This document shows, piece after piece, positions 514 through 44,115 of a DNA stretch of 45,172 nucleotides. Source of the DNA: Deltaproteobacteria bacterium TMED58 (GTDB lineage Bacteria > Desulfobacterota_D > UBA1144); the NCBI GenBank assembly GCA_002167555.2, contig NHDL02000002.1:86072-131243 (forward strand), written 5' to 3'. Below the pieces are notes generated by a model that saw only the letters and a list, made by a program, of their open reading frames with translations, made no database searches and was not told the origin of the DNA. The first letter of the stretch is position 1, and every line of letters begins with the position of its first letter. Both the position numbers and the translations under genes were made by a program.

Positions 514-542
514 TTGACTCATACTATATATAGTGGTTTAAT
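514..542 (+). promoter_or_regulatory. sigma70-type promoter of nrdAB
   Basis: TTGACT (514-519), 17 bp spacer, TG-G-TTTAAT extended -10 (534-542). Confidence 0.65.
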
Positions 543-568
543 GAATTTATAATCACAATATATGGTTA
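521..568 (+). promoter_or_regulatory. Tandem NrdR boxes
   Basis: atactatatatagtgg (521-536) and tcacaatatatggtta (553-568) fit acaCwAtATaTwGtgt, start 32 bp apart and lie upstream of nrdA; box 1 sits in the promoter spacer. Confidence 0.85.
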
Positions 569-616
569 ATTGTGCATATAAAGGACAGATAGTATTTTAG
601 AGTGATTATGGACTAC

Positions 617-676
617 CGGGGCAAGGACTAGGTTTAAATTCCCCTTTTGCACCCCGTTAAGCTTTTTCCTTGCCTC
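617..676 (+). promoter_or_regulatory. Structured 5' leader element of nrdA (family unknown)
   Basis: GC-rich patch; 618-637 pairs with 657-676 (ggggcaagga/tccttgcctc plus aggtttaa/ttaagctt); alternative pairing of 617-626 with 645-656. Confidence 0.5.
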
Positions 677-704
677 TAAAAATCATCATATAGGGAGGAT
701 ATAA

Positions 705-3506
705 ATGAATCAAATTGAGCAGTTACTAGTAGTTAAAAGGTCAGGTGAATTAGTTGAATTTGATTCGGTTAGAATCCTTAATGCAATAAATGCAGCAATA
801 AATGCGGGAAGCGAGGAAGAGCCTTCAGAAGTTAATACTCAAGATATTGTAGATAATATCGAAGAGGAGATTTTTTCAAGGTTTTCAGAGTTTTATCCAA
901 ATGTTGAGAATATTCAAGACATCGTAGAGAAGCATTTAATAAGAGCCGATCTCTTTACAGTTGCTCGTCGCTATATTATATACAGGGCGGAAAGAGCAAA
1001 AGAAAGAGAAAAGCAAAAAGAAAAAATTTCTCAAAAAGCTGAATTAGGAAAGTTAAAAATCAGAAAGAAAGATGGAATAAATGTTCTTTTTAATCCCCAA
1101 AAAATTAGAAAAACTGTATCAAGAGCTTGTGAAAAATATTTAGATACCACCTCAGTAGACTCTATTGTAAAAGAGTTGACAAGAAATATTTTTGATGGCG
1201 CAACTACACAAGATTTAGAGAGAGCACTGATACTATCTTCTACGGCCTTTATAGAGAGGGACCCTGATTATAGTAAGGTTTCAGCAAATCTCTTTCTTCA
1301 AAGGCTTTATAAAGAGTCTATGGAAGTATCTGTCACGTCAGATACTTTAGAGTCACAATATAGAGAGACCTTCATAAATGGAATAAGGTTGGGAGTCAAG
1401 CATGGATACTTAAGTGAGAAGCTTTTAGATTTTGATTTAGAGAAATTATCAAATTCTTTAGATTTAAATAGAGATCAACTTTTTGAGTTTATTGGAATCC
1501 AAACTTTATATGAAAGATATCTTCTTTCTCACGAGGGAAGAAAATTCGAATTGCCTCAATCCTTTTGGATGAGAGTAGCAATGGGTGTATCAATTAATGA
1601 AAAGAATAAAGACTCTAGGGCTTTGGAGTTTTACAACAAACTTTCTTCAATGGAATTTGTTTCTTCTACTCCGACATTATTTCATTCAGGAACTCCGCAC
1701 CCACAACTTAGCTCTTGTTATTTAACTACAGTTTCAGATGATTTATCTCATATATTTAAATGTGTCGGAGATAATGCTCAGTTATCGAAATGGTCTGGTG
1801 GTCTGGGGAATGATTGGACTAATATAAGAGCGACGGGCTCCCGAATAAAAAGTACAAATGTTGAAAGCCAAGGAGTTGTTCCTTTTCTTAAAATTGCCAA
1901 CGATGTAACGGTGGCTATTAATAGAAGTGGGAAAAGAAGGGGCGCTACATGTGCTTATCTTGAAACATGGCATCTTGATATAGAGGATTTTTTAGATTTA
2001 AGAAGAAATACTGGAGATGATAGAAGAAGAACTCATGATATGAATACATCAAATTGGATTCCTGATTTATTTATGAAAAGGGTTGTAAACAAAGAAGATT
2101 GGACTTTGTTTTCTCCGGAAGAAGTACCCGACTTACACGATTTATTTGGAAGTGAATTTGAGAAAGCTTACATAGGTTATGAGGAAAAAGTTACAAAAGG
2201 GAAGATTAAGAAGCATAAAAAAATCCACGCCCCTGACTTATGGAAAAAAATGCTTACAAGAATTTTTGAAACTGGCCATCCTTGGATAACGTTCAAAGAT
2301 TCGTGTAATGTTAGATCCCCTCAAGATCATGTTGGTGTGGTTCATAGTTCAAATTTATGTACAGAAATCACACTAAATACTTCAGCTGATGAGACCGCAG
2401 TTTGTAATTTAGGGTCCATTAATCTTTCGAAGCATATTGTTAACGGTAAATTAGACAAAGATTTATTAAAGGAATCTGTACAGGTAGGAATAAGGATGCT
2501 TGATAATGTGATAGATTTAAATTTTTACCCTACAATTGAAGCCAAAAATTCAAACTTTAAACATAGACCAATAGGGATGGGAATAATGGGTCTACAAGAT
2601 GCATTATTTAAATGTAATTTATCTTTCGAGTCGCCTAAAGCACTTAATTTTTCTGATCAACTAATGGAGTTCATTTCTTATAATGCGATTGACTCATCCT
2701 CTGAATTAGCAAAAGAAAGAGGTTCATATGAAACATTTGAAGGTTCAAAGTGGGATAGAGGAATATTTCCTCTTGATACTTTAACTATGCTTGAGGAACA
2801 AAGAGGTGACCATATAGATGTAAATAAGATAACTTCAATGGACTGGGAAGAATTGAAGGATAAAGTCAAAAAGCATGGTATGAGAAATTCAAATACTATG
2901 GCAATCGCTCCGACAGCCACTATTTCAAATATTGCAGGTTGCTATCCATGTATCGAGCCAATTTACAAAAATATTTATGTGAAATCCAATATTAGCGGTG
3001 AGTTTACTGTTGTTAATTCTTACTTGGTTAATGACTTAAAAAATTTAAACCTTTGGTCTAAAGAAATGTTGGACAAGATAAAGTATTTTGATGGGAACTT
3101 AGACCAGATTTTAGAAATCCCAGAGGAGCTTCGAGAGAAACATAAAGAAGCTTTTGGAATAGATCCTCATACTCTTTTAAAACACACATCGGTCCGAGGG
3201 AAGTGGATTGATCAAAGCCAATCTCATAACATATTTATGCAAGGTGTATCAGGAAAGCTGCTAAGTGAAATTTATATAGCAGCATGGAAGCTTGGTTTAA
3301 AAACAACATATTATTTAAGAACTTTGGCAGCAACCCAAATTGAAAAATCAACACTTGATGCTAATAAATTTGGTTATACTCAGAAAAGAGAGTATAAAGA
3401 TGTCGCTGAAGGGAATATGCAGGAGCAATCTCAATCTGATAAGCCTGCATCAGAAGTAACAAGTGCATGCAGCATAATGGACCCAGATTGTGAAGCTTGC
3501 CAGTAA
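705..3506 (+). CDS. nrdA: Class I ribonucleotide reductase alpha subunit with two N-terminal ATP-cone-like domains
   Basis: VVKRSG and IRKKDG cone starts; QLSSC, SSNLCTEI, APTATIS, TTYY, C-terminal CEACQ; SD agggagg. Confidence 0.97.
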   Translation: MNQIEQLLVVKRSGELVEFDSVRILNAINAAINAGSEEEPSEVNTQDIVDNIEEEIFSRFSEFYPNVENIQDIVEKHLIRADLFTVARRYIIYRAERAKEREKQKEKISQKAELGKLKIRKKDGINVLFNPQKIRKTVSRACEKYLDTTSVDSIVKELTRNIFDGATTQDLERALILSSTAFIERDPDYSKVSANLFLQRLYKESMEVSVTSDTLESQYRETFINGIRLGVKHGYLSEKLLDFDLEKLSNSLDLNRDQLFEFIGIQTLYERYLLSHEGRKFELPQSFWMRVAMGVSINEKNKDSRALEFYNKLSSMEFVSSTPTLFHSGTPHPQLSSCYLTTVSDDLSHIFKCVGDNAQLSKWSGGLGNDWTNIRATGSRIKSTNVESQGVVPFLKIANDVTVAINRSGKRRGATCAYLETWHLDIEDFLDLRRNTGDDRRRTHDMNTSNWIPDLFMKRVVNKEDWTLFSPEEVPDLHDLFGSEFEKAYIGYEEKVTKGKIKKHKKIHAPDLWKKMLTRIFETGHPWITFKDSCNVRSPQDHVGVVHSSNLCTEITLNTSADETAVCNLGSINLSKHIVNGKLDKDLLKESVQVGIRMLDNVIDLNFYPTIEAKNSNFKHRPIGMGIMGLQDALFKCNLSFESPKALNFSDQLMEFISYNAIDSSSELAKERGSYETFEGSKWDRGIFPLDTLTMLEEQRGDHIDVNKITSMDWEELKDKVKKHGMRNSNTMAIAPTATISNIAGCYPCIEPIYKNIYVKSNISGEFTVVNSYLVNDLKNLNLWSKEMLDKIKYFDGNLDQILEIPEELREKHKEAFGIDPHTLLKHTSVRGKWIDQSQSHNIFMQGVSGKLLSEIYIAAWKLGLKTTYYLRTLAATQIEKSTLDANKFGYTQKREYKDVAEGNMQEQSQSDKPASEVTSACSIMDPDCEACQ

Positions 3507-3530
3507 AAAAATTATTTTAGGGAGTGCAAA

Positions 3531-4529
3531 ATGACTATATTAAGTAACGATTCTAAGACTGACCCAAATAAGATTCTACCTATGACTTATATGTGGGCTA
3601 GAGAACACTATAAAGACGGAGTTGCAAATAACTGGACCCCAGAAGAAATATCTATGCAAAAAGATGTTGAGCAATGGAAGTCTCCTGATGTTTTATCTGA
3701 TATTGAAAAAAGAATGATTCTTTGGAATCTAGGCTTTTTTTCAACTGCTGAATCATTAACAGCTAACAACATTGTTCTCACTGTTTACAAGCATGTAACA
3801 AACCCTGAGGCTAGACAGTATTTATTAAGACAGGCATATGAAGAAGCAGTTCATACTGACACATTCATTTACTGTTGTGATACTTTGGGACTAGACCCAG
3901 AATACATTTATAATATGTATGAAACTATTCCATCTATAAAAGAAAAAGACGATTATGTAGTAGGTCTTACAAAATCAATTATGGATCCTAACTTTGAATT
4001 GAGGACCGACGAAGATATTAAGATTTTTCTTCAAGATGTAGTTGGATATTACGTAATAATGGAAGGAATCTTTTTTTATGCGGGGTTCGCTATGATGTTG
4101 GCTCTCAAAAGGCAAAATAAGATGGTTGGCATTGGAGAACAGTTTGAGTATATAATGAGAGATGAAAGTATTCATTTAGCTTTTGGATGTGATTTAATAA
4201 ATACAATCAAAGAAGAAAATAAAGGTATTTGGACAAGTGATGTTCAGAAAAATATCACTGATTTAATTATACAAGCTGTTGACCATGAGAAAAAGTATGC
4301 TTTTGACGCCTGTCCTAATGGATTACTTGGGATTAACCCAGAACAGTTTTGCGAATATGTAGAATACATTGCTGATAGAAGACTTGAGAGAATAGGTCTT
4401 GATAAAGTATATGGAACTGATAATCCTTTTCCATGGATGTCTCAATCAGTCGATTTGTCAAAAGAGAAGAATTTCTTTGAAACCAGAGTCACCGAGTACC
4501 AGACCGCTGGTTCATTAGATTGGGATTAA
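3531..4529 (+). CDS. nrdB: Ribonucleotide reductase beta subunit, class Ic (Mn/Fe) type
   Basis: FFSTAE(74), EEAVH(108)TDTF(112), ME(178)GIFF, RDE(212)SIH(215), NFFETRVTEY; Phe at the radical-Tyr position and Glu as first ligand. Confidence 0.95.
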   Translation: MTILSNDSKTDPNKILPMTYMWAREHYKDGVANNWTPEEISMQKDVEQWKSPDVLSDIEKRMILWNLGFFSTAESLTANNIVLTVYKHVTNPEARQYLLRQAYEEAVHTDTFIYCCDTLGLDPEYIYNMYETIPSIKEKDDYVVGLTKSIMDPNFELRTDEDIKIFLQDVVGYYVIMEGIFFYAGFAMMLALKRQNKMVGIGEQFEYIMRDESIHLAFGCDLINTIKEENKGIWTSDVQKNITDLIIQAVDHEKKYAFDACPNGLLGINPEQFCEYVEYIADRRLERIGLDKVYGTDNPFPWMSQSVDLSKEKNFFETRVTEYQTAGSLDWD

Positions 4530-4670: not shown

Positions 4671-5984
4671 CTACTTTTTAAAAGGGTCTTTTATCTCGGG
4701 ATGCCAAAGTGCAAAATGATTTTTATGAGACTCTGTATAGGCTCCTTCAGGATAAAACTTATCATAGAAATCTAAATCTATATGGTGGTTTTGAACCATC
4801 ATACGACAGTACATAGGGTCAGAAAAACCAGGAAATTTACCATATGTATCAAAAATATAATTACAGATATCTTTTACAATTTGAATCTCTTCTTTGCTTG
4901 GTTTGGGAGTCGCATTTAGAACGCCAGAAGGATCTTTATATGGCATATATTTAGAGTCCCAATTCCCCCATTTCATCTCATTGAATGCATCAACTGCTTC
5001 AGACATATTTTTAAAATAAGGTGGGCAGAAAGATTCAAAATGTCCATCGAGCCCTACAGGAGCTTTTGAAACCGCAGAACCCCACTCATCTCCTTGATCT
5101 TTAGATTCAATACAAGTGAATCCGAGACCGTCAAAACTTTCATCAGCTCCGAGTATATGCCTACTCTGAAAACCGCTGAACATCCAACCACCGAGCCCAA
5201 GAATTTGTTGAGTTAGTACAACATTCTGACAAAACAATGGTTGCTCAGCAATGTAACCATTTGCGAATCTCAGTTCTGCTTCTATTAATGGAATAGGGTT
5301 TGATTTTTTAATGTATCCGTTGTCTATCCATTTTTGGGTTCCTGCCGGCTTCATTTTATTCAGCTCATCAACAAAATTAAACCTATGTCCCTCTCTCATA
5401 TAAAAGAATAAAATATTTATTAAGCCTGCGGATAAATCCGTCACAGGCATAAATAAAGTTGTACCAGGCTTGTTAACACTCCAAGTGTTATGTATAGCGA
5501 GGCCGGGAGGCACATCTGGTATTTTAGCTCGACCATCATGAATTTTTATTCTTGATTCTCTAAAAAGCTGTAAAATCTTATCAATTTTATCTTCTCTTTT
5601 TAAACCTTCTATTCCTTTTAAATCAGGCGCGTCTTTATCGTTTAATTTAAGCAAATACAACCCTTCATCGTTGGTATAGAATAATTCTGTTCTATGAATA
5701 TCTCCAAGTGATGGAATTGTCTTACTCATAAACTTTACTTCTAAATCTAATCCTTTATGAGGAGGGAAATCAGAAAGATTTATATTTTTAATACCTAATC
5801 CATTCCAAGCTAGAATTGCTTCTTCTATTTCACTTAAAGGAACTGGAGAATGATTCGATTTATATTTAAGTGGACCTTCATCTATTTCACCACCCATTGG
5901 AAATCTTCTAGATCTTCTCTCATAAAGTGCATCTAGATAAGAATGATTAATTGCATTATCTAAACCTGGTGGTAACTTTGACAT
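4671..5984 (-). CDS. Uncharacterised nitroreductase-fold-like flavoprotein
   Basis: N-terminal ERRSRRF (FMN-phosphate-binding-like), TIPS, and QNVVL..QILGLGGW, all nitroreductase-like; 437 aa. Confidence 0.6.
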   Translation of the reverse strand: MSKLPPGLDNAINHSYLDALYERRSRRFPMGGEIDEGPLKYKSNHSPVPLSEIEEAILAWNGLGIKNINLSDFPPHKGLDLEVKFMSKTIPSLGDIHRTELFYTNDEGLYLLKLNDKDAPDLKGIEGLKREDKIDKILQLFRESRIKIHDGRAKIPDVPPGLAIHNTWSVNKPGTTLFMPVTDLSAGLINILFFYMREGHRFNFVDELNKMKPAGTQKWIDNGYIKKSNPIPLIEAELRFANGYIAEQPLFCQNVVLTQQILGLGGWMFSGFQSRHILGADESFDGLGFTCIESKDQGDEWGSAVSKAPVGLDGHFESFCPPYFKNMSEAVDAFNEMKWGNWDSKYMPYKDPSGVLNATPKPSKEEIQIVKDICNYIFDTYGKFPGFSDPMYCRMMVQNHHIDLDFYDKFYPEGAYTESHKNHFALWHPEIKDPFKK

Positions 5985-12349: not shown

Positions 12350-14012
12350 CTGTTATTGCACCTTCAGAAGCTGAGCTAACTAATGCTGAATATTTATAAA
12401 TTGCACCTGTCAAATGTTTTTGTGAGGGCTTTTTCCATTTTTTTTGTCTGGCAGCTATTTCTTTTTTAGTAATCTTGATTTCAAGTAATCTTCTAGATGA
12501 ATCAATCTTGATAACATCATTATTTTTAATAATAGATATAAGCCCGCCGTCAAAGGCTTCGGGTGTTACATGTCCAACCACGAAACCATGAGTACCACCA
12601 GAAAATCTCCCATCTGTTATAAAAGCAACATCTGAGCCCAATCCTTGACCCATGATGGCTGATGTTGGAGCTAACATTTCTCTCATTCCTGGACCACCTT
12701 TTGGCCCTTCATATCTTATTACAATTACATGTCCTTTTTTAATTTTCTTTTTTAATATTGACTCCATACATTCTTCCTCTGAATCAAAAACAATTGCGGG
12801 TCCTTCGAATACTAGACCTTCTTTTCCAGAAATTTTTGCAACTGCTCCATCTGGTGAAATATTCCCCTTGAGTATAACAAGGTGACTATCCTTCTTAATA
12901 GGGTTAGAAATGTCTCTTATTATTTTATTTCCCAAATTATCTTTTACATTTTTTAAATTTTCTTTCATTGTCTTTCCAGTAACTGTTAAACATTCACCAT
13001 GTAAAAGATTATTATCTAACAGCCTTTTAAGTAACGGAGGAAGGCCACCAATCTCACAAAATTTTGCCATTACATGAGAGCCACTGGGCTTTAAATCAGC
13101 TAGAACGGGAACTTTTTTTCCAATTCTTGTAAAATCATCAATGGAAATTTTTACTTTTATAGCTTTAGCCATTGCAATTAAATGAAGAACAGAATTTGTT
13201 GAACCTCCTAGGGCGATTGTAACAGTTATTGCGTTCTCAAATGCTTTTTTTGTCATTATATCGCTTGGCCTAATATTTTTTTTGACAAGATTAATTAAAG
13301 CTTTGCCGGAGTTTAAACAATCCTTTTTTTTGTTGGGAGATATTGCTATTTGAGTTGAGCTCCCAGGCAAGCTCATACCTAATGCCTCAATAGCTGAAGC
13401 CATGGTGTTGGCGGTATACATCCCGCCACAAGAGCCTGGTCCAGGTATTGCTGATTTCTCTATTTGTTCTAATTCTTTTCTTGAAATTTGTTTATTGGAA
13501 TAAGATCCTACAGCTTCAAAGACAGATACAACATCAATAGGTTTTTTCTTATGGATTCCAGGCATTATTGATCCACCATAAATAAAAATAGATGGTCTAT
13601 CAAGTCTTGCCATCGCAATAAGACAACCAGGCATATTTTTATCACAACCACCAATAGTAATAACGCCATCAAATCCCTCTGCAGCAGAAACAGTTTCTAT
13701 TGAATCAGCAATTACTTCTCTTGATATAAGTGAGTATTTCATTCCAGGAGTTCCCATAGAAATCCCATCAGAAACTGTAATTGTATTAAAGATTACAGCT
13801 TTACCACCATTTGTATTAGCTCCTTTGGCAGCTTGATTTGCCAACCCATCTATGTGCATATTGCATGGTGTAACCATTGCCCATGTAGAGGCAATCCCTA
13901 TTATTGGCTTATTAAAATCAGGATTAGTAAAACCTACAGCCCTTAACATTGCTCTGTTAGGAGCCTTATCAAGTCCGTTGGTTACAAAAGATGAAAATTT
14001 TTTGTTTTTCAT
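12336..14012 (-). CDS. ilvD: Dihydroxy-acid dehydratase
   Basis: [42 protein letters not shown]. Confidence 0.97.
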
Positions 14013-14614
14013 TATTTTAGATTGCTTTCAACAGCTTCCCAATTAATAATTTCCCAAAAAGCGTTTATATAGTCTGGCCTTTTATTCTGATAGTTAAGGT
14101 AGTAAGCGTGCTCCCAAACATCTATTCCTAATATAGGATTTAGACCAGAAGAAATAGGAGTATCTTGGTTTGGTGTTGAAAGAGTCACGAGTTTTCCACT
14201 CTTATCTTGGCACAGCCATCCCCACCCACTCCCAAATTGTTTAGTAGCTTTTTCATTAAATTCTGATTTAAAATTATCAAAACTTTCAAAAGAATCTGTA
14301 ATTAAGCTATTCATATTCTCACTAGGTTTGCTGTCAGACTTTGGTCCAATAATTTGCCAAAATAATGTGTGATTATAATGACCACCACCACCATTTCTAA
14401 CTGCAACTCTAATTGATTCAGGTATTTGATCCAGATTCGCTAACAAATCTTCTAAGCTTTTTTCAAAAAGCTCTGGGTAAGATTCTAGTGCTTTATTTAA
14501 GTTGGTTATATATGTTTGATGATGTTTTGAATGGTGAATCTCCATTGTTTTTGCATCAATGTAAGGTTCTAATGCATCATAAGAATATTGAAGTCTTGGT
14601 AGTTCAAAAGCCAT
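14012..14614 (-). CDS. sodA: Superoxide dismutase with Mn-type signature
   Basis: [37 protein letters not shown]; GGH and NQD are the Mn-type discriminators. Confidence 0.9.
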
Positions 14615-42822: not shown

Positions 42823-44115
42823 CTAAAAGTCGCAACCAAAAATTCTATCCAAAATTATTGCAACTGCACTCCTCACGGATAAATGATTATAATCATAATA
42901 ACTTCCGACTGGCTTAAGAATATAATCAGAATTATCTAAAACTTCTTTAGCTAAACCCCATCCAGTTCCAAATAAAAACAAATAAGGGGTATCATCCGTA
43001 GTTAATTTACGTTTGATGTCAGAATAATTAACCATATTATGCATAATTCTTCCATCAGTTGCAACTACTTTAGGTCTCATGCCATGAATCTTGGTGATTT
43101 TTTTAATAGTAGAATTTATGCTGTTATTTATCTCAACATTTCCTAAAGCACTATGTTTCGTTGAGCTATTCTTGGAGCTGGCACTCTCTCTCCAATAATC
43201 TAGAACATTTTGACCTAGTTTTCTTTGTTCTTTTATAGGGTGAGTAATAAAGTACTTTTTAATTCCATATGCCATACAGGATCTAGCTATGTCTTGAATA
43301 TCTAGATTTGTAAGAGAGGTTTTGATTATTTCTCCTTTAATATTTTGTATAGGGTAGTGGACTAATGCCAAGTATGAGTTTGATGAAATCGTATCCCTTT
43401 TAATTTTCTTTAGTGCCTTCCTTTCCTTAATTGTAAGCTCAGCATTTGATAATAAATCTTCTCTCATTTTTAAAGTTGCCATAAGAGATGATTCACGATT
43501 GAACTCTTTTATTTTTTTATGATCCCCAGATACTAGTATTTTTGGAACTTTTTTATTGGATATTTTTTCAGGTCTAGTGTAAACAGGATGTTTTAATAAT
43601 GAATTATTCAAGCTATCAGTTTTAACTGATTGTTCGTTTCCAACTACCCCTGGAATTAACCTTGATATAGAGTCCATTAAAATTACTCCTGGTATTTCGC
43701 CACCAGAAACAATGTAGTCCCCAATTGATACCTCGTAATCAGCATATTCGTCAATTATCCTTTGATCAAAGCCTTCGTACCTACCGCAAACAATTGATAT
43801 ATTATTCAGTTCTGATAATTTTTTAGCTAAATCATTATTAAGAGTCTGTCCTTTAGGGGTAAGGAAGATTATCTTTGTTCTTGGATTAAAATTCTTTATT
43901 GCTTTTATAGCTTTAGATGCATTTTGATATTTGATTACCATTCCTGGGTCTCCACCAAATTGTTTATCATCTAGTCTTTCAGATTCTTTTAAAAAATTTG
44001 AATAGGAGAATAGATTTACTTTTATCTTCTTATTTCTTATAGCTTTTGAAAGAATCCCATATTTAAGACTTGGCTTTATTATCTCATTAAAAACACTAAG
44101 AACATTAAAAATCAT
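42823..44115 (-). CDS. trmD: tRNA m1G37 methyltransferase TrmD fused to a second SPOUT (TM1570-like) methyltransferase
   Basis: [21 protein letters not shown]; then [32 protein letters not shown] in the same frame. Confidence 0.93.

Follow-up and report, generated by a model that had tools for sequence, protein, structure and literature searches.

The stretch of DNA analysed here (the window; 45,172 nt, positions 86,072 to 131,243 of contig NHDL02000002.1 from Deltaproteobacteria bacterium TMED58) carries an nrdAB operon. Its second gene, nrdB (3531..4529, + strand; 332 aa), very probably encodes the beta subunit of a class Ic (R2c-type) ribonucleotide reductase (RNR) that works with the NrdA encoded upstream of it and serves as the organism's only RNR. 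Judged by its sequence, the enzyme itself is an ordinary, correctly recognisable class Ic member. What appears to be new is the context: in a pelagic lineage of an abundant type this is the sole RNR, it was probably taken up in place of a class II enzyme, and a family-specific leader precedes it.

The frame at 3531–4529 runs open from its ATG to a TAA, and its start, preceded by GGGAG, lies 24 bp beyond the stop codon of nrdA. A scripted reading of the ORF returned W35, E74, E105, H108, F112, E178, Y207, E212, H215 and Y323, with codons GAA at 3750–3752 (E74) and TTC at 3864–3866 (F112); all residues and both codons quoted in an earlier note on this DNA, which had called the gene a Chlamydia-type class Ic subunit from its letters, are present as it described them. 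The six ferritin-like ligands comprise four Glu (E74, E105, E178 and E212) and two His (H108 and H215). The product belongs to the RNR small-chain family (PF00268, Ribonuc_red_sm; 294.2 bits, cut-off 33.6, residues 14–299) and scores 536.9 bits with the NCBIfam model NF005550 (cut-off 309). It combines the two R2c features, a Glu as first ligand (E74) and a redox-inert Phe at the radical-Tyr position (F112), and departs from class Ia/Ib in having E74 instead of Asp, F112 instead of the radical Tyr, and scores below cut-off with the class Ia (NF006576; 84.2 bits, cut-off 346) and class Ib (TIGR04171; 80.2 bits, cut-off 355) models. The first ligand is Asp in class Ia/Ib and Glu in class Ic, oxidases of the R2-like ligand-binding type (R2lox) and monooxygenases (PMC4118035).

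A phmmer search against all PDB chains returned 1syy_A as the top match (E value 6.9e-136, 456 bits, query 5–331 against chain 21–346), followed by the 4d8f/4d8g/4m1h/4m1i group (8.4e-136), 2ani_A (2e-135) and 6y2n_A (1.9e-120), after which the next match, a yeast small chain, reached just 147 bits. The search gave molecule names alone, and we take the organism of 1SYY and of 4D8F/4M1H/4M1I to be Chlamydia trachomatis. By a hand count of the identity line, 198/327 aligned positions are identical to 1syy_A (~61 %). The alignment contains one 1-residue gap, near query 51–52, with an offset of +16 before it and +15 from there to the end; W35, which lies N-terminal to the gap, stands opposite chain W51, and the constant +15 offset to Chlamydia numbering claimed in the earlier note holds for every residue that it listed (blocks 108/123, 211/226 and 314/329). 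E105/H108, E178 and E212/H215 (ExxH, E, ExxH) are intact and identical to 1syy_A. The F112 column can be identified as the radical-site position because 2ani_A, presumably the F127Y variant, differs from 1syy_A by a y in place of f exactly opposite query F112. The C-terminal tail of NrdB (...TEYQTAGSLDWD), which includes Y323, aligns with the chain C-terminus; we assume that W35 and Y323 are radical-transfer residues and that the tail binds R1. E74, E178 and E212 lie opposite E89, E193 and E227, which are cofactor ligands of the Chlamydia protein (PMC11883743), and a figure legend in PMC8463856 labels 4M1I as the structure of class Ic.

The window protein therefore resembles the Chlamydia trachomatis R2c end to end, in its six ligands, its radical-site Phe, its Trp and its C-terminal Tyr and tail, and also in the outer-sphere Phe (F182 opposite F197) and Tyr (207 opposite 222). 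It differs in being ~15 residues shorter at the N-terminus and, unlike the intracellular pathogen, its host is a free-living marine bacterium of ~1 Mb. The beta subunit of PDB 6Y2N, which we believe to be the R2c-type protein of Saccharopolyspora erythraea, is the second-best solved relative (E value 1.9e-120 over residues 7–332) and is more distant than the Chlamydia protein.

The adjoining gene, nrdA (705..3506, + strand), encodes a full-length class I RNR alpha subunit of 933 aa with two ATP-cone stretches. The protein scores 1318.4 bits with NF005544 (cut-off 965) and contains the Pfam domains Ribonuc_red_lgC (barrel), Ribonuc_red_lgN (all-alpha) and ATP-cone (two copies); its best PDB match is 5im3_A (1030.9 bits, residues 6–933). 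It carries the motifs LSSCYL (335), SNLCTEI (549), AVCNLGS (565) and TTYYLR (867) and the C-terminal CSIMDPDCEACQ, in which we recognise the catalytic cysteines, the Asn/Glu residues, the radical-transfer Tyr pair and the re-reducing Cys pair. These motifs and the NF005544 score bear out the cognate nrdA that the earlier note had placed beside nrdB. We take 5IM3 to be the Pseudomonas aeruginosa class I alpha subunit with tandem ATP-cones; the window NrdA resembles it in its two N-terminal ATP-cone regions, its catalytic and YY motifs and its C-terminal CxxxxxDCEACQ tail. The beta subunit of that enzyme presumably carries Tyr, whereas the window partner has Phe, and no solved beta chain of the 5IM3 organism was among the phmmer matches of NrdB. 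In its two ATP-cone stretches, the window NrdA also differs from chlamydial NrdA, which has three.

Among the 20 sequencing runs listed as holding the stretch or part of it, 18 are on record as RNA; they come from several studies, and all are labelled as marine or seawater metagenomes. Contigs from four RNA-library runs (three studies) together extend over most of nrdA and nrdB, with 95–100 % identity, and three span the nrdA/nrdB junction (X4, 2645–4262; X2, 3353–4357; X5, 3112–3672). The 5′-most contig ends lie at 549 (X1), 559 (X5) and 637 (X2). At most, these data hint at expression of nrdAB and at a transcription start near 549–559.

The genome (1,011,758 bases in 6 contigs, estimated 92.8 % complete) holds one PF02867 match and one PF00268 match, both in this operon, and returned no match to the glycyl-radical enzyme NrdD (NRDD) at that completeness. 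nrdAB thus appears to be the only RNR found in the genome. In a few loci of other genomes (L005, L009, L085 and L087), nrdA apparently starts with TTG rather than ATG (…GGAGTAAATTTTGAATCAT…), and a first-ATG rule cuts the ORF short there, to 855 aa. One family genome has a second NrdA-like ORF on another contig (L094:1183-3669, G009:C11; 829 aa, NF005544 1011 bits), which could represent a paralogue, a fragment or contamination; with the window NrdB as query, that genome gave no second NrdB.

The signature residues are strongly conserved. Among the matches listed from a search limited to 8000 candidates, there were 120 close homologues (77–100 % identical), and E74, E105, H108, F112, E178, E212, H215, W35 and Y323 are kept in 120/120 of these, with position 207 being Tyr in 113 and Phe in 7. 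The Glu/Phe signature was also present in 80/80 loci kept from a species-representative genome collection, which span many phyla (residues read by script for 79 loci and by BLASTP for L066), and the scan of that collection gave an estimated ~1200 matching stretches. The recurrence of E74 with F112 is far beyond chance, and Glu/Phe R2c-type proteins are already well known and widespread in public genomes.

To these we added a covariation set, for which 50 %-identity clusters were searched exhaustively and the best 150 representatives aligned. At the first ligand and the radical site, these 150 rows comprise Asp with Tyr (54) or Cys (1); Glu with Phe (34), Val (9), Leu (3), Ile (2), Ala (1) or Tyr (7); and fragments or other combinations (39). 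Hence, 54/55 of the Asp rows have Tyr, and 49/56 of the Glu rows with a radical-site residue carry one of F, V, L, I and A there; covariation between the two positions is strong, as would be expected for the class. The class cannot be read off the first ligand alone, because seven clusters pair Glu with Tyr, a combination that matches neither the Ia/Ib nor the Ic pattern. As a separate observation, many NrdB representatives are 610–680 aa long (P0122, P0124, P0126, P0129, P0130 and others) and match the query in two stretches, often with a break near query 214, between E212 and H215, as if an intein-type element had inserted into the metal-site helix.

The distribution of nrdB among relatives suggests a foreign origin. 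The nearest named NrdB records are from a 'bacterium' metagenome-assembled genome (MAG; 98 % identity), then from Candidatus Dadabacteria/Thermodesulfobacteriota MAGs and one Hydrogenedens (86–88 %); relatives at 74–82 % come from Dependentiae/TM6, Pseudomonadota MAGs, Acidobacteriota (Thermoanaerobaculia), Woesearchaeota, Micrarchaeota and other archaea. In a sample of 40 genomes, NrdB was detected in 16/18 others of the window's family and in 0/22 from four other families. Each of these 22 genomes has one PF02867 protein of ~815–880 residues and none has NrdD above cut-off, and the three large subunits extracted from them are all class II NrdJ (TIGR02504 535–556 bits, cut-off 400). In a wider 120-genome sample of the phylum, NrdB was found at E <= 1e-20 in 15/18 family genomes and, at 63–69 % identity, in 6/7 genomes of one genus of another family (g30); the remaining 94 genomes had none. 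Two sequences from this genus were checked, and both have Glu and Phe.

In a FastTree phylogeny of 146 rows, the window NrdB falls in a nine-row clade of marine MAGs (support 99*) within an 82-row clade (100*). All but two rows of the larger clade have Glu and Phe, the two exceptions having Ser at the first ligand, and most Asp/Tyr clusters lie outside it; the sister position of Woesearchaeota/Micrarchaeota has support 89, not starred. A quick IQ-TREE run (56 rows, LG+G4, SH-aLRT only) recovered the family (6 rows, 99*) as part of a larger clade of 33 rows (97*), all with Glu and Phe, that also holds Dependentiae, archaea, Acidobacteriota and Pseudomonadota MAGs, with poorly supported branching within; the other NrdB-bearing genus of the phylum falls outside this clade, as its sister. 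By these trees, the NrdB of the family stands nearer to proteins from other phyla and from archaea than to the NrdB found elsewhere in its phylum. Since NrdB nests among other phyla and archaea and the sister families have class II enzymes, horizontal acquisition is suggested, by which the nrdAB operon would have reached the marine family and replaced the class II enzyme kept in the sister families. Avoidance of B12 was considered as a general reason for the loss of class II and rejected, because four B12-binding-domain matches above cut-off remain in the genome.

Two alternatives concern what kind of protein nrdB encodes. The first holds that it is an R2lox or another ferritin-like oxidase and no RNR subunit at all. 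R2lox and R2c do share the ferritin-like fold, a Glu first ligand and a reported Mn/Fe site (PMC9314684, PMC4118035), and R2lox chains appear low in the phmmer list (7qbk_A, E value 1.1e-11). However, the best of five NCBIfam R2lox models, NF006200, reached 61.3 bits against a cut-off of 194, and the other four reached 31–60 bits against 274–346. In addition, NrdB keeps F182 opposite Chlamydia F197, the channel-blocking Phe that is replaced by Ala in R2lox, where this opens the ligand channel (PMC4118035). Placement among R2lox, which the earlier note had singled out as incompatible with its claim, fails on both grounds. The C-terminal Tyr and the R1-binding tail are conserved, nrdB lies 24 bp from nrdA with RNA-library contigs spanning both, and no other NrdB was found in the genome to serve its sole NrdA; we regard an oxidase as exceedingly improbable. 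Under the second alternative, nrdB encodes a class I beta subunit of the conventional tyrosyl-radical kind, with the radical on a nearby Tyr, such as Y114, two residues past F112. Y114 and Y207 are indeed close in sequence to the metal ligands, and the seven Glu/Tyr clusters among the relatives (P0156, P0157, P0213, P0214, P0236, P0243 and P0193) run counter to a simple Ic pattern. Nevertheless, in the Chlamydia protein the Phe is likewise followed, two residues on, by this Tyr ('tfly' opposite 'tfiy'), and that protein is described as using a metal-based oxidant and no Tyr radical (PMC8463856). Y207 is dispensable, because Phe occupies this position in 7/120 close homologues and in both g30 sequences checked. 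This alternative is therefore very unlikely as well, and the class Ic assignment made in the earlier note stands on every sequence feature that could be tested, with a full-length class I NrdA encoded next to it.

The metal is less certain than the class. In the Chlamydia enzyme, a Mn(II)/Fe(II) centre whose site 1 is occupied by Mn is converted to Mn(IV)/Fe(III) by O2 or H2O2 (PMC8463856). By analogy, O2 (or H2O2) would oxidise the same site in the window NrdB, and the Mn(IV)/Fe(III) centre would replace the tyrosyl radical as oxidant of the NrdA active-site cysteine, being reversibly reduced in the process via a W35/Y323/YY pathway. A rival view is that the R2c-type NrdB runs in the cell on Fe/Fe (in a high-valent form) or on whichever metal is available, with no dedicated Mn/Fe cofactor. 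The same evidence that favours this view is among several points that weigh against our reading. As of 2014, no R2c had been shown to use Mn/Fe in vivo, and the metal is not assignable a priori from sequence or structure, so that its identity cannot be read from the ligands (PMC4118035). The Mn/Fe assignment is taken over from the Chlamydia enzyme. The genome revealed no clear Mn importer (a marginal Nramp match of 31.7 bits, cut-off 29.8, and no ABC-3 match), a search outcome that we consider uninformative. The earlier note had called for an alignment with the Chlamydia and Pseudomonas proteins and a phylogeny; the alignment was obtained and the window NrdB falls in a Glu/Phe clade, but the trees were built without the NrdB of Chlamydia and Pseudomonas, and so the link to a characterised enzyme runs only through the PDB alignment. 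No donor can be named from the trees, which leave the direction from class II to class Ic unrooted, and the RNA-library contigs are assemblies, into which DNA may have entered and from which neither strand nor true ends can be read. Against the Fe/Fe view, high activity of R2c requires the mixed-metal cofactor (PMC4118035). A poorly active form would be costly, because nrdAB is the genome's sole RNR. The runs holding the stretch suggest a seawater habitat, and surface seawater is iron-poor. On balance, we consider that an enzyme with no dedicated Mn/Fe cofactor is unlikely, though less so than the two alternatives above.

Upstream of nrdA, the promoter region is reminiscent of NrdR-repressed nrd operons. 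A putative −35-like hexamer, TTGACT (514..519, + strand), lies 17 nt upstream of a −10-like hexamer, TTTAAT (537..542, +). The latter is invariant in 11 distinct family loci and the former is conserved as TTGACT in these loci (TTGACA in one); a consensus promoter scan did not list TTGACT at 514–519. Between the two hexamers lies an NrdR-box-like perfect palindrome, ACTATATATAGT (box 1, 523..534, +; 12/12 self-complementary), followed by a second, ACAATATATGGT (box 2, 555..566, +; 10/12 self-complementary). The centres of the boxes are 32 bp apart, both overlap the promoter, and the arrangement is conserved across the family loci; in the 45-kb window, the pattern AC[AT]ATATAT[AG]GT occurs solely at 523 and 555. 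NrdR boxes follow a known consensus and are laid out in tandem. An NrdR gene is present elsewhere on the same contig (G000:C3:232754-233179; 172.5 bits, cut-off 124.65). The apparent likeness to NrdR-repressed operons comprises an NrdR gene in the genome and two AT-rich palindromes 32 bp apart over the promoter, and NrdR would be expected to repress nrdAB transcription at these two predicted boxes. Unlike such operons, and among the genomes searched, this family alone has an extra conserved, structured element in the 5′ untranslated region (UTR) after the boxes.

This 5′ UTR element (594..695, +) was delimited by a covariance model, R1. Alignment and RNAalifold place its hairpin arms at 618–627 and 667–676 (+) and its apical 19 bases, CCCCTTTTGCACCCCGTTA, at 641–659 (+); the latter are identical or one base off in the 11 aligned sequences. 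The 3′ arm of the hairpin is complementary to the Shine–Dalgarno region (693–698). The RNAalifold consensus hairpin has 15 pairs, five of which show compensatory changes on both sides, compared with 1.5 +/- 0.9 in shuffles (0/500) and 0–1 in slid controls; this test used 10 distinct, related sequences, and the alignment tested had also supplied the structure. For 570–710, the minimum free energy was no better than that of shuffles (z 0.23), and support for the hairpin therefore comes from covariation only.

Model R1 found exactly one copy per genome in 19/19 family genomes. It matched 0/101 other genomes of the phylum sample and 0/74 other loci (72 nrdAB loci of other phyla and two of the other NrdB-bearing genus). 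An Rfam scan of 380–760 with permissive filters gave, at E <= 1, just one chance miRNA match (E value 0.63, 18 bits against a gathering threshold of 72), and on that ground the leader belongs to no described family. Scanning metagenomes (4/64 parts) with a 14-base apical motif yielded 119 loci, one of which (L112) has the flanking arms; the remaining 118 seem to match by chance, so that no wider diversity was gained.

When parts of the leader were folded separately, three pairings were found in all 11 sequences: the long hairpin (pairing A; −17.9 to −27.1 kcal/mol), the 5′ arm with the apical UUUUGC-A-CCCC (pairing B; −8.6 to −12.5 kcal/mol) and the freed 3′ arm with the Shine–Dalgarno region (pairing C; −4.8 to −22.1 kcal/mol). 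B plus C is the overall optimum in 3/11 sequences, two of them near-identical. These predicted folds make a two-state translational RNA switch in the nrdA leader possible, which we offer as a hypothesis.

A bolder reading, which we consider improbable as a whole, is that the family swapped a B12-dependent class II enzyme for a horizontally acquired Mn/Fe class Ic RNR as its sole source of deoxyribonucleotides, under the control of NrdR and of a lineage-specific 5′ UTR RNA switch. In that switch, the 5′ arm would be contested between the apical sequence and the 3′ arm, freeing the anti-Shine–Dalgarno stretch on a signal that might be a metal, a nucleotide or a protein. The Mn/Fe cofactor assembles efficiently only with substoichiometric iron, and an organism with a class Ic RNR alone is expected to live under constant iron limitation (PMC4118035). 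If this reading is true, the lineage would be a natural case of that predicted permanent limitation. Tolerance of peroxide and NO, which the earlier note attributed to the enzyme, is a hypothesis for the Chlamydia protein (PMC4118035). A seawater bacterium that has class Ic as its sole RNR and lacks a catalase match is in keeping with the ideas of iron sparing and peroxide tolerance without testing them, and the lineage may provide a natural test of both.

Class Ic was seen mainly in extremophiles and pathogens according to a 2014 review (PMC4118035), whereas such RNRs are far more widespread in public genomes than the handful of studied cases, and the window NrdB offers a small R2c from a non-pathogen for biochemistry. 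The structured leader before nrdA, specific to the family, is a further candidate regulatory RNA. Our literature search found no link of class Ic RNR to Dadabacteria or ocean bacterioplankton; the word 'ribonucleotide' occurs 0 times in the main text of a marine Dadabacteria paper (PMC8115339), whose supplementary tables could list the gene.

The surroundings of the operon are ordinary. GC content of 3-kb windows is even (0.30–0.35), which together with the genome size of 1.01 Mb agrees with the streamlined genome described in the earlier note, and size and base composition fit pelagic streamlined marine Dadabacteria (PMC8115339), a lineage name taken from the labels of the NrdB relatives. The genes that the note had cited as signs of prototrophy were located in the window, purB and ilvD as such and its pyrE as a phosphoribosyltransferase-domain ORF. 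The other neighbours are an RND efflux pair, coaBC, a Fe/Mn superoxide dismutase (14012–14614, − strand), ispDF, gshA, the ATP synthase operon, rpsI/rplM, sufBCD and rho, all ordinary chromosomal genes, and neither the neighbour genes nor the GC of 3-kb windows gave a sign of a recent island around nrdAB. At 92.8 % completeness, the genome returned no match to catalase (PF00199) or KatG-type peroxidase (PF00141).

Two further ORFs deserve mention. A 437-aa ORF (4671–5984, − strand), convergent with nrdB, matched nothing in Pfam or NCBIfam; its protein-atlas neighbours are 'hypothetical protein' clusters, one with Nitroreductase on 16 % of its members. Finally, a 430-aa ORF (42823–44115, − strand) combines a TrmD tRNA (m1G) methyltransferase domain with a second S-adenosylmethionine (SAM)-dependent RNA methyltransferase domain (PF09936).

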